A stretch of DNA of 64,000 bases from Halodesulfovibrio sp. (GCA_047972125.1 JBKEAK010000208.1:1543-65542); one strand, 5' to 3'; counted from the stretch's first letter, positions 4,131 to 50,217 are shown. The notes: generated from the sequence alone by a model not told the origin. Translations and numbers: made by a program.

Positions 4131-4565
4131 CTAGTGACCGCCGCCGCCAACCAGACCGGAGGCAGCGAGGGAAAGTACGAGAATTTCCGCAACTACAAAG
4201 AAGGTATAAGCCCTATCCTTGCAGCGCAGGTAGCCGGGAATAAGCACTGCGTAACAAACGATGGTAAGCAGTGCCAGCAGGGCGAGACCGAAGAAGTTCA
4301 TGTAGTCGCCCTTGCCCAGCAGTGCCACCCAGTTCCAGCCCTGAGGCGAGTTGGTGGCGGCAAGGTAATCGTTAATGCCGAGGTGCCAGTTGGCAACGAC
4401 GGTTTCAATCGGCACGTGGGGTTCAAACACACCCAGCACGTACATGACATAGGAAATGATCATCAGCAGCAGGCCGGTGTTTGCACCGATCTCCAGAATT
4501 CTCGCGTAAAGCTTCTGCTCCGGAGTAGCTTCGGTAGAAAGGCCGCAGGCTTGTTTTTCGCTCAT
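4131..4565 (-). CDS. Small polytopic membrane protein (DUF1634-like partner of TauE/SafE permeases)
   Basis: Three hydrophobic helices; it sits 12 nt downstream of the TauE-like gene on the same strand. The family call comes from the typical gene pairing. Confidence 0.45.
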   Translation of the reverse strand: MSEKQACGLSTEATPEQKLYARILEIGANTGLLLMIISYVMYVLGVFEPHVPIETVVANWHLGINDYLAATNSPQGWNWVALLGKGDYMNFFGLALLALLTIVCYAVLIPGYLRCKDRAYTFFVVAEILVLSLAASGLVGGGGH

Positions 4566-4577
4566 ATCATCCTCCCG

Positions 4578-5567
4578 TTAGCCCAGAATTCCCAGGCCAA
4601 GACCCTTGTCCAGAGCCTTGAAACCCGCAAAGAAGAGAACGCCGATAACCATGTAGCGGATGAAGGTCGGCTTTGCGATGGCAAGCAGACGCACACCCAC
4701 GAAGGAACCGGCCATCAGACCGATGATGGAAGGAATAGCCATCAGCGGAATAACGCAACCCTGGTTCAGATAAATCCATGCAGCGGAGGTATCCGTGATG
4801 GACAGGAGGAACTTGGAGGTTGCCACGGACACTTTCAGCGGAGCGCCCATGAGAAGGTTCAGAACGGGAATGTTTGCCCAACCTGCGCCCAGACCGAACA
4901 TACCGGCCATCAGACCGATGACGATGAAGAGCAGAAGGCCGGGAAGAGTGCGGTGCGTCTTCCAGTGGAATTCCTTGCCCGTGCCCTGATCCTTGTAGAT
5001 GCCTTCGATCCCGAGTGCGAGGCCGATTGCATCCTGCTTGGTCACGACAGGGTATTCGGAGTTCTTGGAGCAGAGCAGCAGCACTGCAATACCCATGATG
5101 GTAGCGCCAAGAGCGGTCTGAATGTAGCGCGGATCAAGCGCGGACAGATACAGACCGAGCATGGCACCGACAATGGCGCACGAAGACGCGATAAGCGCCA
5201 CCGGCAAGGCCAGCCGTAGACTGGCCAGATTGCGCTTGAGCAGGCCGGGACCGGCAGCCAGAGCGCCCGCCAGTGCTACCATAAGGCCGGCACCGCGCAC
5301 AAAGTCGATATGGAACGGGAAAAAGCCCGAAACCAGCGTCACGAACAGCACGCCGCCACCAACACCCGCGAGCACCGCAATGATGCCGAGGATGAAACAG
5401 AAGAACAGCAGCACAACAGGCCAGAACCACCACGGCTTGCCGTCTGCACCAGGCACGACGCCCGCATCAGCGGCAGCGGACGCCATGGCTGCCACAGGAG
5501 ATGCGAAGACAATCGCGCTCACCCAGAGGCAGAGATTGGTAAAGAGATTCAGAACAGTTTTCAGCAT
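4578..5567 (-). CDS. TauE/SafE-family anion (sulfite/organosulfonate-type) exporter permease
   Basis: Two-fold repeated polytopic protein with Gly-rich helices (GVGGGVLFV ... GLGAGWANIPVL) typical of TauE/SafE. Confidence 0.7.
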   Translation of the reverse strand: MLKTVLNLFTNLCLWVSAIVFASPVAAMASAAADAGVVPGADGKPWWFWPVVLLFFCFILGIIAVLAGVGGGVLFVTLVSGFFPFHIDFVRGAGLMVALAGALAAGPGLLKRNLASLRLALPVALIASSCAIVGAMLGLYLSALDPRYIQTALGATIMGIAVLLLCSKNSEYPVVTKQDAIGLALGIEGIYKDQGTGKEFHWKTHRTLPGLLLFIVIGLMAGMFGLGAGWANIPVLNLLMGAPLKVSVATSKFLLSITDTSAAWIYLNQGCVIPLMAIPSIIGLMAGSFVGVRLLAIAKPTFIRYMVIGVLFFAGFKALDKGLGLGILG

Positions 5568-5898: not shown

Positions 5899-5942
5899 AG
5901 AAAAAAAGAGATTGTTCCATTTTGGAACAATCTCTTTTTTTC
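5899..5942. terminator. Bidirectional rho-independent terminator
   Basis: agagattgttcc (5907-5918) pairs with ggaacaatctct (5924-5935), flanked by an A7 run and a T6 run. It lies just downstream of the 6000-8651 gene. Confidence 0.8.
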
Positions 5943-5999: not shown

Positions 6000-8651
6000 T
6001 TATTTGGGCACTATGGGATGGTGCGCAGACTCATACACCGTCAGTTCGCGAGTATGGCAGATGCAGTTGTTGCCTCTGCCAAGAGGACCGGCAAGCTGCT
6101 GATACTGCAGGGGAATGATGTTGCTGCGCAGTTTGCCGAAGGCATTTTCCGCCGGATACAGGGCATGGGTGGACCCGTGGCAGGCCTGACACATGATGGC
6201 CCCCATGTCGTCCTGTCGCTCGCTGTACAGCTCGGCAGGATCACCCGATGTCCATTTATGCGCCGCAGAAGAGTCCGCCGCAGGTGTGGTGAAGAAGTCG
6301 TGGCATACGGTGCAGTCAGGCTCGCTGACCCAGGGAGAACGGGCCTGCACGTCTTCGTAGGAATCCGCAACACGGGGCACAAGGTGCGTCATGAGCTTGT
6401 CCACACCGCGCTTGCCCAGCTCCTTTTCCTTCTTCAGCAGGCCAAGGGCGTGGTCTTCCAGCGTGCCGTGGCAGTTCACACAGGTAAGCCCCTTGGAGGC
6501 GTGCACACCGCGCATGCCCTGCGTAAAACTCGACCGGGCTGCGGGATGGCAGCTCTTGCAGCTGCGGTCGTCTTCCTCGCCAAGATAGTTCGCATGCCAG
6601 CCATGCACAGCGGCGGAGAAGCCGATAAGCCCTTCCTGCCCTTCAGTTCCCAGCTTGGGAGAGCCGTGGCAGCTCTGGCAGAGCACGGGGTTGCCACGGG
6701 CGGCACGCGCCACAAGGTCGGTTCTGTTGATCTTGTCATGTGCGGCGAGAATGTTGTCTGCCGTCACATCAGACATGCCGGTGCGGTTGGCCACGCGCCA
6801 GCCACCATCGTGGCAGTTGCGGCAGCCCCATTCCGTGGAAACGGGAACGGCAACCTGTGTCTCGGCCAGCAGTTCGCCGGACGAATCACGCGCCTCGACA
6901 ATGAGCAGCGGATAGGGATTGACGGAACCGTCGTTGCCATAGGGCAAGGCAGGCAGGCCATGCACCACAAATGCCCTGTGGGCCTCATCAGGCGCAAACT
7001 GCCCTTCCGGCCCTGAACCCGGTTCACCGCCGGGAGCCATGCCCACATTCGGGGGAACTTCCTTGCCGAACAGCGCTGCGGCATGGTCCCAGAAGGTCAC
7101 ATGCTTGGCGGGCGTTTCAAACCCCTTTTCCATGCGGTAGGAAAGCACGACACCGTCCGTCAGAATTTCCGGCGTGTCATCCCGCCGCAGCAGCTGGGCA
7201 CGCACGGTCACACCGGGCGGTTGCATGGTGAAACGGTCATTATTATCTGAAATGGTTGTCATGCCCATGGTTGCCCACGCCACCAGCACATATTCCGCTT
7301 CATGCCTGTTGAATGCAGGAATGATGGTTGCCAGTGCCTGCGGTGAAACAGAGGTACCCTCGGGCTCGCGCTTCTGAATGATGTCGGCAATATAGGTGGC
7401 AAGCGCCACGCGCTCTATTTCAGTGCCCAAGAAAGGCGGCATGAAATTGCGCAGGCGTCCCTGACCGGAAAGCTGAGCCTCAAGGCCCGTGCGGGTCAGC
7501 GCAGCCGTTTTCGTCTCGGCAGAGAGCATGGGGCCGCCAATGCTGTGGCAGGCCAGACACTGCAGGCGATAGAGTTCCTCACCGGCCTCTACCATGTTCT
7601 GCGGCGTCACCTCGCGCACCTTGACCCACTTGGCGTGCTGCAGCGCGCCTTCCTTGCGGATGAGTTCAGTCTCGGCCACCTTCACGGAGTTGGACCACGT
7701 GTGCCCGTGGATGAGATAAGGTCTGCGTCCGGCTTCACGTATCCATTCAAAAGTACCCATATGGGCCAGTCCGGCAAGCACGAGCACCCCGACAAGGGCA
7801 GCCCGGCACACCTTGGTGCGCATGTAGGCAACCGTCAGGCCGCCGAGAATGATGGCAGCGGTAAGGGGGAAGAACACCCGCACCAGTTGCGGAGTCTGGG
7901 CCGACTTCTGCAGAACCATGGTGAACTGCGGCTCGGGCAGGGCCATCAGATACCACACCCCGGCAGGCAGCATGAGCAGGAAGGGATAGCCAACCCACTG
8001 CACGGCGTAGCGCACCATGCGCTCGCGGGTGTGTTCTTCCTTGATGCGTATGGCCGTTACCAATGCAAACAACCCTGCTCCCATGAGGCAGATGGAGGTG
8101 CGCAGCGCAAGCGAGGGCCAGAAGGTGGGGTTGAAGAACCCGTCCCAGAACCGCTGGGTCTGCAACCATTCGCCCGGAGTGAGCATGGTGGTGATAATGC
8201 CGTTGATGACATACAGCGACATGAAGGCAAAACCGAAATAGAACCAGCCGATAACCATGTGATCGCGACGTGACATGTGGTTGAAGCGGTAGTGATACAG
8301 CAGCAGAGCCACAATTTCACACAGGAAGAACACCCACTCAATTGCCCAGCCGAAGCCGAAGGCATGCACCAATGTGGATGTTGCCGCAGGCGAAAGCAGC
8401 CCGATGGTGAACCATATGCCCACCCCGGTCATGCCGCCCGCCACCATGGTCAGCAGCAGAAAGAACTTGGTGTGCGCCTTGACGTAGTCGAGAATGCGGG
8501 AATCATTTTCCCTCACCGCCTTGCGCTCCGTCAGCACGAGGAAAAGGCCGCCGCCCACCGCAAAATGCGCGATGAAGACGTGGAACACCGCCACGCAGGC
8601 GATGATGAAGCCACCGGAAAACTCGGGAATCCACCATACTGGATATTCCAT
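6000..8651 (-). CDS. Fusion protein: cytochrome-bd-subunit-I-like polytopic membrane domain, monohaem cytochrome c module and multihaem cytochrome c domain
   Basis: The start was chosen at MEYPVWW (ATG 8649-8651), 2 nt after the upstream stop. The N-terminal region (FHVFIAHFAVGGG, GWAIEWVFFLCE) is CydA-like. There are seven CXXCH motifs (CLACH, CRNCH, CQSCH, CKSCH, CVNCH, CTVCH, CQACH) plus a terminal CICH. Confidence 0.7.
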   Translation of the reverse strand: MEYPVWWIPEFSGGFIIACVAVFHVFIAHFAVGGGLFLVLTERKAVRENDSRILDYVKAHTKFFLLLTMVAGGMTGVGIWFTIGLLSPAATSTLVHAFGFGWAIEWVFFLCEIVALLLYHYRFNHMSRRDHMVIGWFYFGFAFMSLYVINGIITTMLTPGEWLQTQRFWDGFFNPTFWPSLALRTSICLMGAGLFALVTAIRIKEEHTRERMVRYAVQWVGYPFLLMLPAGVWYLMALPEPQFTMVLQKSAQTPQLVRVFFPLTAAIILGGLTVAYMRTKVCRAALVGVLVLAGLAHMGTFEWIREAGRRPYLIHGHTWSNSVKVAETELIRKEGALQHAKWVKVREVTPQNMVEAGEELYRLQCLACHSIGGPMLSAETKTAALTRTGLEAQLSGQGRLRNFMPPFLGTEIERVALATYIADIIQKREPEGTSVSPQALATIIPAFNRHEAEYVLVAWATMGMTTISDNNDRFTMQPPGVTVRAQLLRRDDTPEILTDGVVLSYRMEKGFETPAKHVTFWDHAAALFGKEVPPNVGMAPGGEPGSGPEGQFAPDEAHRAFVVHGLPALPYGNDGSVNPYPLLIVEARDSSGELLAETQVAVPVSTEWGCRNCHDGGWRVANRTGMSDVTADNILAAHDKINRTDLVARAARGNPVLCQSCHGSPKLGTEGQEGLIGFSAAVHGWHANYLGEEDDRSCKSCHPAARSSFTQGMRGVHASKGLTCVNCHGTLEDHALGLLKKEKELGKRGVDKLMTHLVPRVADSYEDVQARSPWVSEPDCTVCHDFFTTPAADSSAAHKWTSGDPAELYSERQDDMGAIMCQACHGSTHALYPAENAFGKLRSNIIPLQYQQLAGPLGRGNNCICHTRELTVYESAHHPIVPK

Positions 8652-8653
8652 GA

Positions 8654-9745
8654 CTAGCCCTCCCTGCCGGGGCGGAACGCCAGCCGGATCATGTAGAAGA
8701 TGCACCAGAGACCGCCGAGAAGCGTCACAAAGAAGAGAATCATCGGTGAATAATCTGCCATGACAGGCAGGTCCTGTACCTTGAAATAGGGCTCAAGATA
8801 GGCAGCCCGGACAAGCGCACGAACCAGCGACATGGCCAGCACGGTGGCGACAAGGGCCACCGCCGTTGCCTTGACCCGGTTGCGCACTGCGTAGTGCAGC
8901 ACTATGGCAACGCACACCAGCGCCACGGCCAGCGCACCGGTATGGAACTCGGATGAACCGAGGAAAAGGGACCTTATGCGCACCGGCATGGCACCGAGAA
9001 ACGCACCACCCACCAGCAACTGCATGGCAGTACAGATGGTGAACCACATCATGCCGAAGCGGATATGCGGCATGGCCTCCTGCTTGTCCATGGTGCCCTT
9101 GGTGAGGCGGTGTTCAAACAGCAGGGCCAGCGTGAGCCCGCCCACAGCCACGGCCGCCAGCATGAAGTGCAGGTAGCGCGGCACCAGCGCGGGGTCTGCC
9201 GTATTGAGCAGCAGGCCGCCCATGCCGTGATCGGCCGCACCGCCGTCGCCGAAGTAGGCCAGCCATGCCTCAGGCTGCAGCATCATGGTCATGTTGTTGG
9301 TGAAGATGAATCCCACAAACAGCAGAACCGCACAGACCACAGCCAGAATCAACCGGCTGCTTTTCCACGCCTCGTACTTGTACCGGAAGGTATAAAGCCC
9401 CGAATAGGCGATGATGGCGCACAGCACCACAGAAAGCCAATAGGCCCCCATGAGCACCGAGCTGGTATAGAAAAATTGTCCGTAAAGCATCTGGGCGAAC
9501 AACAGCGGGGCAACGCCAAAGTTCACGGTAAGTGCGAAAAGCGTGGGCAGTGAGTGGGAAACCTCCCGCACTGCGGCATCGCGGGGAAGGGATACGGACC
9601 GGACGAGACAGAGAATGCCCCCGCCCACCACGGCGTTCATCAGCAGAATATGTGCGGCAAAGGTGACAATCAGCAGAACCTCCAGCCAGCCCCAAGCCAC
9701 GGGTATTGCATCCGGCGCAGGTATCAGATTTGCGGCAACCATCAA
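8654..9745 (-). CDS. Polytopic membrane protein paralogous to the N-terminal domain of the downstream gene (CydA-like, no haem c motif)
   Basis: About 9 hydrophobic helices. FAAHILLMNAVVGGG parallels FHVFIAHFAVGGG of the partner. The gene appears translationally coupled to the next one. Confidence 0.6.
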   Translation of the reverse strand: MMVAANLIPAPDAIPVAWGWLEVLLIVTFAAHILLMNAVVGGGILCLVRSVSLPRDAAVREVSHSLPTLFALTVNFGVAPLLFAQMLYGQFFYTSSVLMGAYWLSVVLCAIIAYSGLYTFRYKYEAWKSSRLILAVVCAVLLFVGFIFTNNMTMMLQPEAWLAYFGDGGAADHGMGGLLLNTADPALVPRYLHFMLAAVAVGGLTLALLFEHRLTKGTMDKQEAMPHIRFGMMWFTICTAMQLLVGGAFLGAMPVRIRSLFLGSSEFHTGALAVALVCVAIVLHYAVRNRVKATAVALVATVLAMSLVRALVRAAYLEPYFKVQDLPVMADYSPMILFFVTLLGGLWCIFYMIRLAFRPGREG

Positions 9746-9997
9746 ACTCTCCTTGCTAGAAATCCGTCGTGAAGCGCCCGCACCGGCGCACCATCAATAA
9801 GAAAGGTATTATTTCCTCTGCAACTGTCTATAAACTGAACTTGCCTGCGGAGTATACTATTTAACGCATACCGCGTTATGATATTTCGATAATGATTACT
9901 GTTCTACAGATATACTACCAATCACAGTGCAGGCGGCAAACCGCAGTGGCCGCTCGGCAGCTTGTTATTTTTCAGCAAACAGGGTAGGTGCCGCTGC

Positions 9998-15080: not shown

Positions 15081-15440
15081 TCACTTAGACTGCCCTCGCC
15101 GTATACCCTTTGTTACAGTTCTCACGCCCTCTCCAACTTTTGCCCCGATACACTCGCTTGGAGAAGAAGGGGGTAACTCCGGGGCAATGGCCCCTGCGGT
15201 AACATCACGAATTATCTCGTATGATGCGGGGCTGGTGAGCACCTTATTTACCGCATCTATACCTTTGTTACGCACAGCTTGTCCTGCAGCAGAAGCCGCC
15301 TTTCCCACAGCTTGAGCAGCCACCTTCCCTGCCTGAGTTGCCATCTTGGCGGCTTGCGGTGCTTGTTTCAATGCGGCCGCGCCAAGCTCCGGCAATGCGG
15401 CAATCTCAACAAGCTCGAAAATCTCACCATGCTCGACCAC
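15081..15440 (-). CDS. Orphan polymorphic-toxin C-terminal module (no Rhs shell), related to the tail of 15719-16738
   Basis: Residues LVEIAALPELGAAALKQAPQAAKMATQAGKVAAQAV...RNKGIDAVNKV match the Rhs tail. The last ~55 aa are unrelated to it. Confidence 0.55.
   Translation of the reverse strand: MVEHGEIFELVEIAALPELGAAALKQAPQAAKMATQAGKVAAQAVGKAASAAGQAVRNKGIDAVNKVLTSPASYEIIRDVTAGAIAPELPPSSPSECIGAKVGEGVRTVTKGIRRGQSK
15262..15410. repeat. Recombination tract shared with 15911-16027 (orphan copy, carrying a 33-nt internal duplication)
   Basis: Near-identical DNA, e.g. ggcggcttgcggtgcttgtttcaatgc[g/a]gccgcgccaagctccggcaatgcggcaatctcaac. The extra segment encodes GKAASAAGQAV. Confidence 0.8.
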
Positions 15441-15501
15441 GGCACTATGATATCGCCCACGGATTCCAGGCGGCTGGACTTCTCCGCTGAACTACATAAT
15501 C

Positions 15502-15581
15502 AAAAGAGAGACTACAAAAAGCAGCCTCTCTTCATTCCTATTTCTCTTTGCTCGGGCTCAGCCACACAATCAGCAGCATGA
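15502..15581. repeat. Copy B of the ~80-nt direct repeat
   Basis: See 13123-13202. The two copies are 2379 nt apart in the same orientation. Confidence 0.8.
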
Positions 15582-15735
15582 CAACACCTATCACACCGCA
15601 AGCGTATGGAACCCAGCTGGGAAGCAATTTCCTATTAAAAATCACCACGTCTTCCCCCCAATGAAAGATGGCAATCCAGAGAGGAAGAAGGGCATACAGG
15701 CTATTTTTGAACTTTTGTTTACTGCTTCCTTTCAC
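15538..15735 (-). CDS. 65-aa two-TM protein, paralogue 4 (putative cognate immunity protein of the Rhs tail)
   Basis: MKGSSKQKFKNSLYALLPLWIAIFHWGEDVVIFNRKLLPSWVPYACGVIGVVMLLIVWLSPSKEK. Its start overlaps the last 17 nt of the toxin gene. Confidence 0.6.
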   Translation of the reverse strand: MKGSSKQKFKNSLYALLPLWIAIFHWGEDVVIFNRKLLPSWVPYACGVIGVVMLLIVWLSPSKEK

Positions 15736-16738
15736 GCTTCATGCCCTTTGTAAAATGGTCAAACACATCGCGACCACTGCTCCCAATCTGTTCCCAAATA
15801 TTTGTAGCCGGAATCTCGGGATATGCAGCCCCCAAGCCCACATCTTTACCATGCTCGATCGCTGCAGCCACTGCCGCCGGATTCCCCATAACCTTATTTG
15901 CCACATCAATGCCTTTGTTGCGTACAGCTTGAGCAGCAGCCTTCCCTGCCTGAGTTGCCACCTTTGCGGCTTGCGGTGCTTGTTTCAATGCAGCCGCGCC
16001 AAGCTCCGGCAATGCGGCAATCTCAACCATGGCACTGTTGATATTGGCCACGGTATCCAGAGGCTTATCCACTGCAGTCTGTGCTTTGGTACCGGATTTA
16101 TTAAACGTATCCGCTGCGCTGGCTGCCACCTTGGTACCGCCATAGGCAAGCACAGTGGCACCGGCCATGGCACCGGCAAAGGGAAGAAGAAATGCAAACA
16201 GTCCCAGCGGATCATTCGCATTCACCGGATCATCAACACAATAATCCCACAAATCGTGATCACCGCCAGTATCGCCCAGCGGGTCCCGGGCGGTGAAACG
16301 GCCCACAGCGGGATCGTAATCGCGGTAGCCAAAACGGACGAAGCCTGTGTAGCGGTCAGGCAGCCCCCCGGCAAAGCCAATGGGCATATAAAACCACTCG
16401 TTTGAGTCACTTAGCACATTGCCAAAGCTATCATACACGATTTCCTTTATCAATTCCCCGCTCTGCGACCACACCGCCCTGAGCGAGCCCACCTGATCAT
16501 AACCGAGCAGATAAGTCGCCATCTCGCTGCCGGCACTCTGCATGCTGACCTCGCCGAGGTTCTCCATCACTGTCACGGCTTCCGGAAGCCTCTCTGCTCC
16601 ATACTGAAAATGATATGAAAGCCCACGGATGTGATCATGATAGGTGGCAAGCCGCGTGGAAAACAAAAGGCCACACCCTACAGGAAAGCAGGCGCAGTCA
16701 TTTCTGCACCTTCCCCGCACGGCATGGCCGGTATCCAC
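15719..16738 (-). CDS. 5'-truncated Rhs-family protein: last YD/RHS repeats, RHS-associated core ending in DPLGL, and a 159-aa variable C-terminal tail
   Basis: YLLGYDQVGSLRAVW, YDSFGN, GFAGGLPDRYTGFVRFGYRDYDPAVGRFTARDP and DDPVNANDPLGL (DPLGL at 16199-16213). RHS-like sequence starts almost at the ORF start, only 23 nt after the stop of the neighbouring gene. This may be a remnant or pseudogene. Confidence 0.75.
   Translation of the reverse strand: MDTGHAVRGRCRNDCACFPVGCGLLFSTRLATYHDHIRGLSYHFQYGAERLPEAVTVMENLGEVSMQSAGSEMATYLLGYDQVGSLRAVWSQSGELIKEIVYDSFGNVLSDSNEWFYMPIGFAGGLPDRYTGFVRFGYRDYDPAVGRFTARDPLGDTGGDHDLWDYCVDDPVNANDPLGLFAFLLPFAGAMAGATVLAYGGTKVAASAADTFNKSGTKAQTAVDKPLDTVANINSAMVEIAALPELGAAALKQAPQAAKVATQAGKAAAQAVRNKGIDVANKVMGNPAAVAAAIEHGKDVGLGAAYPEIPATNIWEQIGSSGRDVFDHFTKGMKRERKQ
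15911..16027. repeat. Recombination tract shared with 15262-15410 (Rhs-tail copy)
   Basis: See 15262-15410. Confidence 0.8.
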
Positions 16739-45545: not shown

Positions 45546-46013
45546 TGCGCCGGTACATGGAAACTACGCGACTTCACCGCACATCAGGCCAGTTACAGGC
45601 AAACGGCAGACATGCATCAGGAGGATATCAGGCGGACACCGGATGCACCCCGCCTCTTCCATCATGCCTGCCCCCGGTCACTTCGCTCGCATACGGAGCC
45701 ATTCTCACAATTTTTTATTCAGCTAGTATGCGGTCGTATCAAATCTCATTCTCTCCCATAAAAGTCAGGAATTATCGTGGGTTAATTTCCACTAAATAAT
45801 GTTTTTTTGCCCCTCATTAATGGCGTTTGAGTACTCACATAACCACTTAACCATCTGAAAACAGAGTACTCGTAGCATTTTTATGAGTGAGCACACAAAA
45901 AAGCACCCGATCTTTTCAAAATTCGCAAAATGGTCTAAAGCAATCGACGCCAACAGATATCTTTCGCATTTCGTACAGTTAGGTTTAACACCAAGTTTCG
46001 AGGAAGGTGTACC

Positions 46014-46781
46014 TTGCCAAAGAGATACTTTCCCATCGCCGTGCTGACCGGTATTCTGGCAGCCGTCGCCCTTTTCGGCTACATGACTCCGACCAAGTCG
46101 GAAACCACCCCCGTCCGCATTCTCATGGATAATGCTGGCGGCAAGGTGATTTTCAATCATGTGGCCCACACCAGGGATTACGGCGCAGCCTGTGAAACCT
46201 GTCACCATGAGACCGTAGCCGGAGACACGGAACCTCTCTCCTGCGGTCAGTGCCATGGGGCCAACGTCACCGATGCCTGGGTGAAGGAACATCAGACATC
46301 CTTTACCAAGGACCTCCAGTGCGCGACCTGCCACCATGTCGAGTTCGCCAAGGACCACGACTGGGGCCACAAAATGCATGAGGATATCGCCTCCTGCACG
46401 GATTGCCACCACGCCGACACGAACATCGAGCCGGAACCCACCAACTGCGCAGACTGCCATCAGGCCGAAGCAGATGGAAAGATGCCCGCCCTGCGTGATG
46501 CCGTGCACGTGAAGTGTCAGTCCTGCCACGCGGAAATGTTCGAGGCGCAACTCAAGGGTTGCAGCAACTGCCACGGCGAAGTGAACCAGAAGGAAGCACT
46601 CAAGGCCGGCCAGATGGACAAGAAGTTCACCAAGTGTACTTCCTGTCATACCGACAAGGCCGTGACCGAAGTCATCCCCAGCCGGATGACCGCCCTTCAC
46701 GCCAGCTGCATGGGTTGCCACGAAAAGCAGGATGCCGGCCCTTACAAGAAGGGCGAGTGTAACCAGTGTCATTTCCGTTAG
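46014..46781 (+). CDS. dhcA: Membrane-anchored decahaem cytochrome c associated with the Rnf operon
   Basis: TTG start preceded by AGGAAGG, an N-terminal anchor helix, and ten CXXCH motifs (CETCH, CGQCH, CATCH, CTDCH, CADCH, CQSCH, CSNCH, CTSCH, CMGCH, CNQCH). It sits directly upstream of rnfC, as in Desulfovibrio vulgaris. Confidence 0.85.
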   Translation: MPKRYFPIAVLTGILAAVALFGYMTPTKSETTPVRILMDNAGGKVIFNHVAHTRDYGAACETCHHETVAGDTEPLSCGQCHGANVTDAWVKEHQTSFTKDLQCATCHHVEFAKDHDWGHKMHEDIASCTDCHHADTNIEPEPTNCADCHQAEADGKMPALRDAVHVKCQSCHAEMFEAQLKGCSNCHGEVNQKEALKAGQMDKKFTKCTSCHTDKAVTEVIPSRMTALHASCMGCHEKQDAGPYKKGECNQCHFR

Positions 46782-46790
46782 GAGAGCAAT

Positions 46791-47972
46791 ATGAGTAACG
46801 CTGTTTTCTCTCTGACCTACGGAGACATGGGTAGCTTTCAGGAAGGTCCTGTTCCCGCTGAACTGCGCATTCCTCTTGCCGGTCATGAACTCAAGACCGT
46901 GAAGAAGAAGGCAGAAGTGGTTCCGGGTACGCTCGTGGCCGACCACAAGAACGCCAAGACAGGTAACATGCACGCCGGCATCGCCGGGGTGGTGACCGAC
47001 ATCACCGCAGACAGCATAGTCATTGCCGCGCAGGAACCCGCCGAACCCGCATCCGTAGCAGCCGTAGACGTATCCGCCCTTACCGGCGATGCGCTTGCCA
47101 CCGCACTGAAGGAACTGGGCGTGGATGTACGCCCTCTGGTCAAGAAGTGCGACACCCTGATCATCAACGGCCTGAACCCCGAGCCCGGCATAACCTTTGC
47201 CGAAACCTTGCTGGGGCAGCACAAGGGAACCATCGAAGCCGGTCTTGCCGTGCTGAGAAAGCTCTCTCCCGCCAGCAGAATGATGCTGGCCTGTGCAGAC
47301 GGTTCAGCAGCCAACCTTTCGGGCCTCACAAATGTTGCCGTGAAGCCCGTATATCCCAACAGCCTCGATGAGCTGCTCATCGCCAAGGCCACCGGCAGCG
47401 AAAAGAGCACCGGTGTGCGGGTGTTGCCCCTGCATACCCTGTTCAACCTCGGACAGGTTGCCCAGACCGGCATGCCCCTCACCAAAACCGTGGTGAGCGT
47501 ACAGGGTGTGAACTACATGGTCACCATCGGCACCCCCGTAAGCGAGCTGCTGCAGCACGCCGGCCACACCATAGCCGACGGCGACATGATCATCGTCGGC
47601 GGCCCCATGCGCGGCATAGCCGTAGCCGACCTCATGCGCGGCGTGGGCAAGGATACGCAGGGTCTCTTCCTCATCAAGAAGGGCTCCTTCGCTCCCGTAA
47701 CCAACAAGCAGTGCATAAGCTGCGGCGAATGCGTGCTGCACTGTCCCTCGCGGATAATGCCCAACCTCATTACCCGCTATGTGGAATTCCGTCAGTTCGA
47801 ACAGTGCACCGATCAGGGCATTGACGTCTGCATGGAATGCGGTCTGTGCGCATACTACTGCCCGGCCCGCCGTCCCATGCTGCAGCTGATCAGGCTCGGC
47901 AAACATCAGATAGCCCTCAAGGAAGCTCAGGTCAGCGCCTGCTCCCTGCAGGGCCCAGAGGGGGCTGCATAA
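46791..47972 (+). CDS. rnfC: Rnf complex subunit C, short/divergent form
   Basis: N-terminal barrel domain, an SLBB-like segment (IIVGGPMRG) and two C-terminal 4Fe-4S motifs (CISCGECVLHCP, CMECGLCAYYCP). The GGAGFP and ECEPY motifs are absent. Confidence 0.85.
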   Translation: MSNAVFSLTYGDMGSFQEGPVPAELRIPLAGHELKTVKKKAEVVPGTLVADHKNAKTGNMHAGIAGVVTDITADSIVIAAQEPAEPASVAAVDVSALTGDALATALKELGVDVRPLVKKCDTLIINGLNPEPGITFAETLLGQHKGTIEAGLAVLRKLSPASRMMLACADGSAANLSGLTNVAVKPVYPNSLDELLIAKATGSEKSTGVRVLPLHTLFNLGQVAQTGMPLTKTVVSVQGVNYMVTIGTPVSELLQHAGHTIADGDMIIVGGPMRGIAVADLMRGVGKDTQGLFLIKKGSFAPVTNKQCISCGECVLHCPSRIMPNLITRYVEFRQFEQCTDQGIDVCMECGLCAYYCPARRPMLQLIRLGKHQIALKEAQVSACSLQGPEGAA

Positions 47973-48931
47973 TGTCCAACGAAGCATTGCCAACCGCGCC
48001 CATTCTGGCTGTCGGTGCCGCTCCCCATTTCCATTGCGGCACGAGCATTCAGGGCATGATGCGCAATATCCTCATCGCCCTTGCTCCCGCCATTGTCGGT
48101 GCCCTGTACTGGTATGGCATGGAAGCAGCCCGCGTAATGGCGCTTGCCGTTTCCACGGCAGTTGTAGTTGAAGTTCTCGCAACCAAGGCCATGCACCGCG
48201 AAGTGATGGTAGACGACCTGCACGCCGTTGTAACCGGCCTGCTTTTCGCCTTCACGCTGCCCGCCGGTGCACCCTGGTGGCTGGTTATTACCGGCACCGC
48301 CGTTACCATGCTGATGGGCAAGATGCTCTTCGGCGAACTGGGCGGTTCTCCGGTTGTCGGTCCCGCAGTGGGCTGGGCCTTCTGCCGCGTTTCCTGGCCG
48401 CTGTTCGTTGACCCGAACGCGACCATGCTGAACACCGAAATGGTGAACCCGCTCACCCAGCTGAAGTACTTCGGTGCTGCACAGGTGAGCAACTTCAGCA
48501 TTCCCGCCCTGCTCTCCGGCGATCAGCTCGGCGCGCTGGGTGCAATGCAGGTGGGTGCCCTGATCCTCGGCGGCATCTATCTCATCATCCGCGGCACCAT
48601 CCGCTGGCAGATTCCTGCGGGCTTCATCATCGGTGTGCTGGGTCTGGGCGGCCTTTACTACGCCATGGACCCCACCCTGTATGCGAACCCCGTGTTCCAC
48701 CTGCTGACCGGCTCCACCATGCTGGCAGCCTTCTTCCTGATGACGGATTCCTCCTCCTCGCCCAACGGCAACGTATCCCGTCTGGTATACGGCATTGTCG
48801 GCGGCGTGCTGGTGGTTCTCATCCGGACCTACGGCAAGTATCCCGACGGTGTCATGTTTGCGGTTCTTCTCGCCAACATGGTCAGCCCGCTGGTGGACCT
48901 CATCAAGCCCAAACCGTTCGGAGCGAGGTAA
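47972..48931 (+). CDS. rnfD: Rnf complex subunit D
   Basis: TAATG overlap with rnfC. It is a polytopic NqrB/RnfD-type protein, with the FMN-attachment region near MTDSSSSP. Confidence 0.9.
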   Translation: MSNEALPTAPILAVGAAPHFHCGTSIQGMMRNILIALAPAIVGALYWYGMEAARVMALAVSTAVVVEVLATKAMHREVMVDDLHAVVTGLLFAFTLPAGAPWWLVITGTAVTMLMGKMLFGELGGSPVVGPAVGWAFCRVSWPLFVDPNATMLNTEMVNPLTQLKYFGAAQVSNFSIPALLSGDQLGALGAMQVGALILGGIYLIIRGTIRWQIPAGFIIGVLGLGGLYYAMDPTLYANPVFHLLTGSTMLAAFFLMTDSSSSPNGNVSRLVYGIVGGVLVVLIRTYGKYPDGVMFAVLLANMVSPLVDLIKPKPFGAR

Positions 48932-48934
48932 GCC

Positions 48935-49513
48935 ATGCGTGAAATAATCAAGATGATCGTTGTGCTTTCCGCAATCTGCGGTCTCTCCGGCTTCTGTCTG
49001 TCCTACCTCAAGCAGCTGACCGCCCCCGCCATTGAGAACCAGGTTCTCACCTTTGTGCAGGGTCCGGCCATCAAGCAGGTTCTGACCGACACCGACAACG
49101 ACCCCATTGCGGACCGCAAGAAGTTCACGAACCCCGCCACCGGCAAGGAAATCAACGTATTTCCCGCCATCAAGGGCGGCAAGCTCGTTGCCATCGCCCT
49201 TGAAGAATTCGGCGCAGGCTTCGGCGGTGACATTGGCGTTATCGTTGGTTTTAACGTGGAGAACGACACCCTTGCCGGTATCGGCGTTACGACCATGAAG
49301 GAAACTCCCGGCCTTGGCACCGCAGTAGCGGAGACCCGATTCACCAAGCAATTCAAGAAGCTGCCCATGAACGTGGACCTCAAGTCCAAGGGTGGACAGA
49401 TTGACGCACTTTCCGGTGCGACCATTTCTTCCACCGGCGTTGTGACTGCAGTTCAGAACGCTGCAAAGGTGTATCAGGCCATCAAGTCCGAAGCCACGGG
49501 CACCTGGAAATAG
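48935..49513 (+). CDS. rnfG: Rnf complex subunit G (FMN-binding)
   Basis: N-terminal anchor and the FMN-binding motif DALSGATISS. Confidence 0.9.
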   Translation: MREIIKMIVVLSAICGLSGFCLSYLKQLTAPAIENQVLTFVQGPAIKQVLTDTDNDPIADRKKFTNPATGKEINVFPAIKGGKLVAIALEEFGAGFGGDIGVIVGFNVENDTLAGIGVTTMKETPGLGTAVAETRFTKQFKKLPMNVDLKSKGGQIDALSGATISSTGVVTAVQNAAKVYQAIKSEATGTWK

Positions 49514-49542
49514 CCGGTCGTGAACCGATAAAGGAGAATACA

Positions 49543-50217
49543 ATGGCCAGCATGTGGAAAGAGTTTTCCAAGGGCCTGTGGGCGGAAATTCCGCCGTTCC
49601 GGCTTATGCTCGGACTGTGCCCCACGCTCGCCGTTACGAAATCCGCCAACAACGGCCTCGGGATGGGTCTTGCCGTTATCTTCGTTCTTGCCCTGTCCAA
49701 CGGCGTTATCTCGCTGATTCGTAACATTATCCCCAAAAAGGTGCGTATCGCCTGTTACATTGCCATCGCAGCTTCGCTCGTTGTTGCGGTGGAACTGCTC
49801 ATGCAGGCGTACACCTACCCCCTTTACCAGCAATTGGGCATCTTCGTGCCCCTTATCGTTGTTAACTGCATCATCCTTGGCCGCGCGGAAGCCTTTGCAG
49901 GCAAAAACCCCGTGCACCTGTCCGTTGCGGACGGCCTTGGCATGGGCATTGGCTTCACCATGTCGCTGACCTTCCTCGGCGCTCTCCGCGAAATACTCGG
50001 ATACGGCACCCTGTTCGGTCATCACCTGTTCGGCCCCGGCTTCCATCCTGTTCACTTCATGGTAGAAGCCCCCGGCGCGTTCGTATCGCTCGGTCTTATC
50101 CTCGGCGGCATGAACCTCATGAGCATCCGCAAAGCCATGCGCCGCGGTGAAAAGCCCGCTGAAAACCCCATGCCCGGCTGCGAATCCTGTCGCGGTTGTG
50201 CAATGGGCAGGGATTAG
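49543..50217 (+). CDS. rnfE: Rnf complex subunit E
   Basis: NqrD/RnfE-type polytopic protein (LGLCPTLAVT, LIVVNCIILGRAEAF). Confidence 0.9.
   Translation: MASMWKEFSKGLWAEIPPFRLMLGLCPTLAVTKSANNGLGMGLAVIFVLALSNGVISLIRNIIPKKVRIACYIAIAASLVVAVELLMQAYTYPLYQQLGIFVPLIVVNCIILGRAEAFAGKNPVHLSVADGLGMGIGFTMSLTFLGALREILGYGTLFGHHLFGPGFHPVHFMVEAPGAFVSLGLILGGMNLMSIRKAMRRGEKPAENPMPGCESCRGCAMGRD

Follow-up and report, generated by a model that had tools for sequence, protein, structure and literature searches.

The cytochrome bd superfamily has been divided by Murali, Gennis and Hemp (2021) into the groups qOR, OR-C and OR-N (bioRxiv 10.1101/2021.01.16.426971). In that work, OR-C1a is a CydA with eight transmembrane helices that lacks the quinol site, carries a C-terminal periplasmic haem c extension, and retains H19, E99 and E107. 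OR-C1b is an adjoining CydA paralogue, also with eight transmembrane helices. Up to eight haem c motifs were reported in Desulfovibrionia, and cytochrome c was suggested as the electron donor of OR-C (bioRxiv 10.1101/2021.01.16.426971). Here we describe a pair of genes of this type, gene 1 and gene 2, in a 64,000-nucleotide stretch of DNA from Halodesulfovibrio sp. (GCA_047972125.1 JBKEAK010000208.1:1543-65542), which we call the window. We found that gene 1 is an OR-C1b and gene 2 an OR-C1a. The locus is another species' copy of a catalogued family and nothing different in kind. With moderate confidence, we favor the interpretation that the two proteins form one membrane complex, a quinone-independent bd-type O2 reductase fed by cytochrome c.

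The coding features of the pair are listed here, with coordinates counted from the first nucleotide of the window.

8654..9742, minus strand: gene 1, an OR-C1b-type subunit of 362 amino acids with nine predicted transmembrane helices, no haem c motif and a bd subunit fold.
7719..8651, minus strand: gene 2 residues 1-311, a CydA-like domain with eight transmembrane helices (from PF01654, the AlphaFold2 (AF2) model, alignments and conservation).
7368..7619, minus strand: gene 2 residues 345-428, a class-I monohaem cytochrome c (from PF13442 at residues 354-421 and matches to cytochrome c6/c551).
6837..7319, minus strand: gene 2 residues 445-605, a beta-sandwich domain with no haem motif (from AF2 secondary structure).
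6003..6836, minus strand: gene 2 residues 606-883, a region with seven haem c sites (from Pfam multihaem families over residues 606-874).
6054..6065, minus strand: the eighth haem c site of gene 2, C863-I-C865-H866 (CXCH; from a motif scan and an alignment of 201 sequences).

The correspondence with the published types is close. The OR-C1a reference protein, Desulfovibrio senegalensis WP_151150981.1, is described with H24, E105, E112, S145, H131, Y119, Y121, V77 and W80 (bioRxiv 10.1101/2021.01.16.426971), and this numbering is identical to that of gene 2. The OR-C1b list includes haem-free 'hypothetical proteins' of Draconibacterium, Halodesulfovibrio and Desulfomicrobium (bioRxiv 10.1101/2021.01.16.426971), and we found that these fall within the gene 1 family. 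Like OR-C1b, gene 1 stands beside an OR-C1a and lacks the proton-channel glutamates; its AF2 model has nine transmembrane helices, compared to eight in the paper. An initial annotation of the window had described the proteins as members of the superfamily that were catalogued and biochemically uncharacterized, and they are indeed the OR-C1b and OR-C1a of Murali et al. The architecture it had outlined was also borne out: a CydA-like domain, a monohaem cytochrome c and a multihaem region in gene 2, with gene 1 a paralogue of the membrane domain.

We found that the membrane domain of gene 2 is related to CydA. Gene 2 matched PF01654 over residues 17-217 with 41.1 bits (cut-off 26.2; E = 1.1e-10), and a profile of the gene 2 family (77 homologues) matched CydA of G. 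thermodenitrificans (5doq_A; E = 7.6e-7). In the latter alignment, H24, E105 and E112 of gene 2 fall on H21, E101 and E108. The equivalents in E. coli CydA are H19 (H24 of gene 2), E99 (E105), E107 (E112), S140 (S145) and H126 (H131). A second collinear segment places W-I-R-E306-A-G-R309-R-P311 of gene 2 on L-A-E378-V-G-R-Q-P of 5doq_A, which corresponds to the E445/R448/P450 motif of E. coli. Conservation was counted in an alignment of 201 family sequences, of which 200 to 201 keep H24, E105, E112, S145, R184, E302, R305, E306 and R309; for E105, E112, S145, E306 and R309 the count was 201/201. These alignments show that OR-C1a keeps the predicted ligands and proton-channel residues of the high-spin dihaem O2 site of bd oxidases.

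The predicted structure agreed with this assignment. The AF2 model of gene 2 (predicted local distance difference test score (pLDDT) of 90) contained eight transmembrane helices and a large periplasmic C-terminal part. In a Foldseek search with this model, the ten best matches were CydA chains and the twenty best were all bd subunits (best match 9r2g_A; E = 2.3e-8, root-mean-square deviation 4.1 over 328 columns). Both ligands of haem b558 (H186 and M393) and the Q-loop are absent from gene 2. The position of H186 is occupied by L183 (F in most homologues), followed by the invariant R184, and the loop between transmembrane helices 6 and 7 has approximately 15 residues.

The periplasmic part of gene 2 contains eight haem c sites. 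In the monohaem domain, the ligands are those of the motif C365-x-x-C368-H369 and M404, which lies in MPPF (residues 404-407) and is present in 201/201 sequences. The initial annotation had named CLACH and MPPF, and we located both, at residue 365 and residues 404-407, respectively. The beta-sandwich domain that follows had weak p53-core-like Foldseek matches alone, and we drew no functional inference from it. Beyond it, there are CXXCH motifs at residues 610, 658, 698, 724, 780 and 821, and CXCH at 863. The six CXXCH motifs had been counted previously, but the site at 863 had been left out of that count. Seven distal His residues outside the haem motifs (638, 683, 686, 717, 829, 877 and 878) are conserved in 197 to 201 of the 201 sequences. 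Gene 2 has one distal ligand for each c haem (one His/Met and seven bis-His), and therefore the c haems look like pure electron carriers. Probably all eight are six-coordinate carriers, which would leave catalysis to the membrane dihaem pocket as the sole candidate site.

The last five haem sites matched domain II/IV of MtrC/MtrF (PF22113, residues 695-874; 42.8 bits, cut-off 30). The models for whole MtrC/OmcA families did not match gene 2 (TIGR03507, 8.5 versus 209). PF22113 is a domain that gene 2 has in common with MtrC/OmcA, and does not indicate membership in that family.

The eighth haem site has an altered spacing in the window and its close relatives. This site is CXXCH in 185/201 sequences, and one further sequence has no motif in the stretch scanned. 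A one-residue deletion has produced CXCH in the window's copy and in the 14 homologues nearest to it (58-89% identity; Desulfovibrio mangrovi and the Halodesulfovibrio clade). The deletion is accompanied by an insertion of two residues ahead of the invariant C-terminal His-His. We know of no natural CXCH haem-attachment motif. Altered spacing of the Cys residues has been termed nonphysiological in a review of System I.

We found that gene 1 and the membrane domain of gene 2 are paralogues, and that gene 1 is predicted to adopt the fold of a bd subunit. This relationship was beyond the reach of HMMER. Gene 1 had no match in Pfam or NCBIfam, including PF01654 and the CydB family PF02322, and searches of PDB sequences with phmmer and two family profiles gave no bd match. 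The gene 1 family is large (at least 2314 clusters at 50% identity; E<=1e-3), and in every database entry examined the homologues are labelled 'hypothetical protein' and have no Pfam domain. PF01654 matched just one of 119 diverse family members (E = 7.6e-10), and BLASTP of gene 1 against gene 2 was suggestive at most (E = 0.064). In contrast to these searches, alignment of the gene 1 family profile to that of the gene 2 membrane domain using hhalign extended over approximately 270 columns with a probability of 96.2% (E = 2e-9), and 96.9% (E = 1.5e-10) when 139 more diverse representatives were used. Either family profile gave a probability below 1% against a single sequence of E. coli CydA or CydB, a single-sequence target being too weak. 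In place of this comparison, we used the gene 2 family and its profile alignment to 5doq_A as the bridge to canonical CydA.

The AF2 model of gene 1 (pLDDT 89.7) had nine transmembrane helices, and its top 14 PDB matches in Foldseek were all CydA or CydB chains (probability 1.0, TM 0.43-0.70). We place gene 1 with the cytochrome bd subunits because of the profile-profile alignment to gene 2 and the predicted fold. The initial annotation had proposed that both membrane domains resemble CydA. The PF01654 match held for gene 2 and not for gene 1; similarly, the conserved His aligned in both proteins, but the Glu ligands aligned in gene 2 and were missing from gene 1. Ranking next in the Foldseek search with gene 1 were quinone subunits of the NrfD type, PsrC (2vpw_C, TMt 0.64) and ActC/ActF (probability 0.97-1.0). 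These predicted folds hint at a general architectural resemblance of bd subunits to NrfD-type proteins. There was no NrfD match to gene 1 in Pfam at E<=1, and none in NCBIfam.

The residues conserved in gene 1 differ from those conserved in gene 2. H31, Y113, H192, M304 and R308 are invariant or almost invariant among homologues down to 29% identity, and R189 is invariant as well. In the alignment, H31 lies opposite H24 of gene 2 and hence opposite H19 of E. coli CydA. H192 aligns with L183 of gene 2, itself opposite H186 of G. thermodenitrificans CydA, and the motif (N/D)-P-x7-H is common to E. coli CydA (N177...H186) and gene 1 (D183...H192). Equivalents of E99, E107 and E445 are absent from gene 1, with Y, W or F at the position of E99 and L or I at that of E107. 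The Q-loop is also absent, and the loops between transmembrane helices 6 and 7 of the two proteins have 13-15 residues. H192 and the other invariant polar residues of OR-C1b lie at a similar membrane depth, as estimated from helix boundaries only. The motifs compared in the initial annotation are present in the two proteins: FAAHILLMNAVVGGG at residues 28-42 of gene 1, and FHVFIAHFAVGGG and GWAIEWVFFLCE at residues 23-35 and 101-112, respectively, of gene 2. Judged from these alignments, the two paralogues retain complementary parts of the CydA ligand set, and OR-C1b probably binds at least one b-type haem.

Some of these features may go beyond the published tables. They are the equivalent of E445/R448 in OR-C1a (E306/R309), for which the paper's table has '-'; the invariant equivalents of H19 and H186, M304, and the Arg residues in OR-C1b, which Table S6 of the paper does not cover; and the CXCH at the eighth haem site in the clade of the window.

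We examined the distribution of the pair using one genome per species. At least 572 species contained a relative of gene 2, and 80 loci were kept, from Thermodesulfobacteriota, Bacteroidota, Ignavibacteria, Krumholzibacteriia, Gemmatimonadales, Fibrobacteraceae and Leptospirales. A homologue of gene 1 was directly upstream on the same strand in 74/80 loci, usually with an overlap of 4 nt. Of the other six loci, two were cut by the end of a contig and four truly had no gene 1 homologue. Full-length homologues number in the hundreds to thousands for each gene, indicating that the pair is not due to chance. The nearest counterparts are those of Desulfovibrio mangrovi (89% and 82% identity), where the flanking genes are also the same.

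Clustering of the flanking open reading frames (ORFs) of the 80 loci revealed no third conserved gene. The commonest real neighbours were unrelated signalling proteins, in no more than 11 loci, and genes for nitrogen oxide metabolism were associated with 0/80. Three of the four loci without a gene 1 homologue had a rubrerythrin and/or ferritin-like gene just upstream (locus L012, 6231-6734; L062, 980-2061; L079, 457-951), which weakly suggests a connection with oxidative stress. The fusion proteins of the four partner-less loci have in common an N-terminal extension of approximately six residues (e.g., MNxxWLLDYPVW in L012).

The arrangement in the window indicates that the two genes are translationally coupled. 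The ORF coordinates confirmed what the initial annotation had reported, two minus-strand genes separated by 2 nt. The longest ORF of gene 1 is 8654..9745 (minus strand) and begins with TTG; translation more likely begins at the ATG one codon further in (9742-9740), with AGGAGAG (9756-9750) as a ribosome binding site seven bases before it. Gene 1 ends with TAG (8656-8654). Gene 2 encodes 883 amino acids (ORF 6000-8651, minus strand) and starts with the ATG at 8651-8649 behind its own ribosome binding site, GGGAGGG. The two genes also share a strong terminator hairpin. We conclude that they are a coupled pair because of the 2-nt gap, the separate ribosome binding site, the joint terminator, and the upstream gene 1 homologue in 74/80 loci.

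If the pair is a cytochrome c-fed oxidase, then electron transfer could proceed as follows. Low-potential periplasmic donors would reduce the bis-His haem chain; in a Desulfovibrio, this role would fall to the pool of type-I cytochrome c3, supplied with electrons by hydrogenases and formate dehydrogenases. The bis-His chain would pass electrons to the His/Met haem c, which would stand in for the His/Met haem b558, and from there they would reach a b595/d-type pair in TM1-4 and TM8 of OR-C1a. O2 would be reduced to water at this dihaem site, with cytoplasmic protons arriving through the E112/S145 channel. OR-C1b would be the pseudo-symmetric partner, in the position of CydB. The outcome would be a quinone-independent, electrogenic O2 sink in an anaerobe.

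Several points weigh against this interpretation. Occupancy by haem, the type of haem (b or d) and reactivity with O2 are each deduced from the conservation of ligands, and we found no biochemical or functional study of any OR-C member in the literature. The alignment of E306 with E445 is weak alone (domain E-value 43) and rests mainly on the motif. The seven low-potential haems exceed the needs of an oxidase and resemble a conduit of the MtrC type. The H186 equivalent of OR-C1b, the position of a b558 ligand, would leave room for a quinone-linked haem center in the partner. In addition, the association with rubrerythrin is confined to three related loci that have no gene 1.

These points bear on two other functions that the same proteins might have. 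The pair could link the quinone pool with the periplasm, with menaquinol oxidized or menaquinone reduced at the membrane subunits, electrons carried by the eight c haems, and no O2 chemistry. The initial annotation had guessed at a function of this sort, a menaquinol:periplasmic-acceptor oxidoreductase. A CymA-like hypothesis is listed in a 2026 preprint on cable bacteria (bioRxiv 10.64898/2026.01.20.700514), the bis-His multihaem region of gene 2 matches MtrC domain II/IV, and the invariant H19 and H186 equivalents of OR-C1b, together with M304, R189 and R308, could hold a quinol-facing b haem; the secondary fold matches of gene 1 to the NrfD-type proteins PsrC and ActC/F point the same way. 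However, the Q-loop is found in neither protein, both b558 ligands are absent from OR-C1a, and this function would not account for the invariance of E105, E112, S145 and E306, residues that bind O2 or deliver protons in bd oxidases. Electron transfer from menaquinol to low-potential bis-His haems would also be uphill. We consider such a conduit unlikely. The guess of the initial annotation is the weaker of two published hypotheses, as the fusion has neither the Q-loop nor the b558 ligands, yet its O2-site and proton-channel residues are invariant. We rank O2 reduction above a menaquinol-linked function because a pure conduit would have no evident use for the invariant E112/S145 channel.

The architecture and electron path could also be as proposed for the O2 reductase, with nitric oxide (NO), H2O2, nitrite or a similar compound as the physiological oxidant of the membrane dihaem site. 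The conserved active-site and proton-channel residues are not specific to O2, canonical bd oxidases have reported peroxidase and NO-related side activities, and rubrerythrin, an H2O2 reductase, is encoded next to the fusion at the three loci noted above. In contrast, all characterized members of the superfamily are O2 reductases, and the nitrogen oxide association was seen at none of the 80 loci. We regard a different oxidant as quite improbable. Another alternative is that gene 1 encodes a quinone-interacting subunit of the NrfD/PsrC type and that the pair is Qrc- or ACIII-like, as the Foldseek matches to PsrC and ActC/ActF would allow. These matches rank below 14 chains of bd subunits, hhalign joins gene 1 and the CydA-like domain of gene 2 in an alignment of 270 columns at 96-97%, the search for an NrfD Pfam domain was negative, and one member of the gene 1 family matches PF01654 at 7.6e-10. 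We find this alternative very hard to credit.

Within the proposed O2 reductase, OR-C1b might do more than serve as an inert scaffold like CydB. It could have its own b-type haem or haems on H31 (equivalent to H19), H192 (equivalent to H186) and M304, with propionates held by R189, R308 and R312. Subunit b would then hold a b558-type site and subunit a the b595/d site along with the proton channel, so that the classical CydA ligand set would be divided between the two paralogues. With the octahaem chain as a bridge between two separate membrane redox centers, the complex could act as a switchable hub linking O2, the pool of periplasmic cytochromes and possibly that of quinones. We offer this extension tentatively and regard it as doubtful. 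A comparable dual role has been speculated for cable bacteria (bioRxiv 10.64898/2026.01.20.700514).

The remaining features of the locus are those at its two ends.

9743..9961 (219 nt), minus strand: 5' intergenic region, the presumed promoter and 5' untranslated region of gene 1, common to a divergent SRPBCC gene.
6000..6002, minus strand: stop codon of gene 2.
5900..5942, minus strand: intrinsic terminator with a 20-bp stem, a 3-nt loop and a run of T.

The initial annotation had given the pair its own terminator and its own AT-rich promoter region. The terminator (20-bp stem and T run, 5942-5900) is there. The dip in G+C content is also real (47% over 9746-9961 and 37% over 9800-9930, compared to 60% within the two genes), but we found no consensus sigma-70 site in the region upstream of gene 1, and the promoter there is presumed. 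Only D. mangrovi aligned to this region, too little for footprinting to identify a regulator site. The sequence GTAATCATTATC at 9888-9899 (minus strand) is like half of a Fur/PerR-type box, with 8/12 positions conserved in D. mangrovi. D. mangrovi keeps TGCGCCGGTGCGGGCG, an inverted repeat at 9775-9790 (minus strand) that is rich in GC.

The genes flanking the pair encode TauE and DUF1634 proteins, a hexapeptide-repeat protein, an SRPBCC protein, pantothenate kinase and enolase. No cydB, cydX-like small ORF, NrfD or Fe-S gene adjoins the pair, no plausible small hydrophobic (CydX-type) ORF was found in the flanks, and canonical cydAB is absent from the window. The absence of a cydB-like neighbour, as stated in the initial annotation, is correct by annotation but misleading, since gene 1 is the partner in the CydB position. 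Past the terminator, at 4131-5567 (minus strand), a TauE/SafE-family membrane protein and a weakly matching DUF1634 protein are encoded as a separate pair with its own AT-rich region; this pair is syntenic in D. mangrovi and not in locus L083.

Two other regions of the window are described here. At 45939-50217 (plus strand), a 280-amino-acid cytochrome that has ten CXXCH motifs and matches the cytochrome c3/c7 Pfam families is encoded directly upstream of genes for rnfC, rnfD and an Rnf/Nqr membrane subunit. The combination of a multihaem cytochrome with Rnf has reportedly been described in Desulfovibrio. At 15081-16738 (minus strand), two adjoining ORFs have a near-identical segment (…EIAALPELGAAALKQAPQAAK.ATQAGK.AAQAV…RNKGID…), and one of them extends into RHS/YD-like sequence. 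The syntenic position in D. mangrovi is occupied by TEN_YD-shell/RHS genes, and the two ORFs look like tip cassettes of a polymorphic toxin.

The locus itself would not surprise a specialist, but the function of the OR-C1 family is a genuine question. The family is large, with gene 2 relatives in at least 572 species genomes, mostly those of anaerobes of sediments and guts. If it is a cytochrome c-fed bd oxidase, then sulfate reducers and other anaerobes would gain a direct periplasmic route from H2 and formate to O2 that bypasses quinones. This would be relevant to oxygen tolerance and to the machinery with which cable bacteria reduce O2. With gene 1 recognized as the second subunit of the bd type, statements that CydB is missing from such organisms are corrected. 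The isolate D. mangrovi is close to the organism of the window, so function can be tested in culture.

Compared to known systems, gene 2 is like the outer-membrane decahaem cytochromes MtrC, MtrF and OmcA in that a bis-His multihaem domain comes after a beta domain. It differs in that it is not an outer-membrane lipoprotein, has one such unit instead of two, is fused to an inner-membrane CydA-like domain, and has no MtrAB partners. A CydA homologue of cable bacteria is, by description, more alike: it is distantly related to CydA, has a periplasmic cytochrome domain at its C terminus and is not accompanied by an annotated CydB (bioRxiv 10.64898/2026.01.20.700514). The preprint leaves two options for that protein, transfer to the periplasm of electrons drawn from the quinone pool or reduction of O2 (bioRxiv 10.64898/2026.01.20.700514). 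If it is an orthologue, then the 'missing CydB' there may be an unannotated partner of the gene 1 type.

The CydAA' enzyme of Caldivirga maquilingensis (qOR4a/qOR4b) is also made of two CydA paralogues in place of CydA and CydB, and its 'b' partner, like gene 1, lacks E99 and E107 and keeps H19. Unlike gene 2, qOR4a has a quinol site and b558 and no haem c, and qOR4b has A190 at the position of H186, where gene 1 has His. Canonical CydAB(X) (qOR1-3; E. coli, G. thermodenitrificans and mycobacteria) resembles the pair in the fold of both subunits, in being a pseudo-symmetric pair of paralogues, and in having H19, E99, E107, S140, H126 and E445/R448, or their equivalents, in one subunit. In contrast to the canonical enzyme, OR-C1a lacks the Q-loop and H186/M393, electrons would enter through covalently bound c haems, and there is no CydX-like gene. 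Whereas canonical CydB carries no cofactor, gene 1 is a CydA-derived paralogue with two His ligands.

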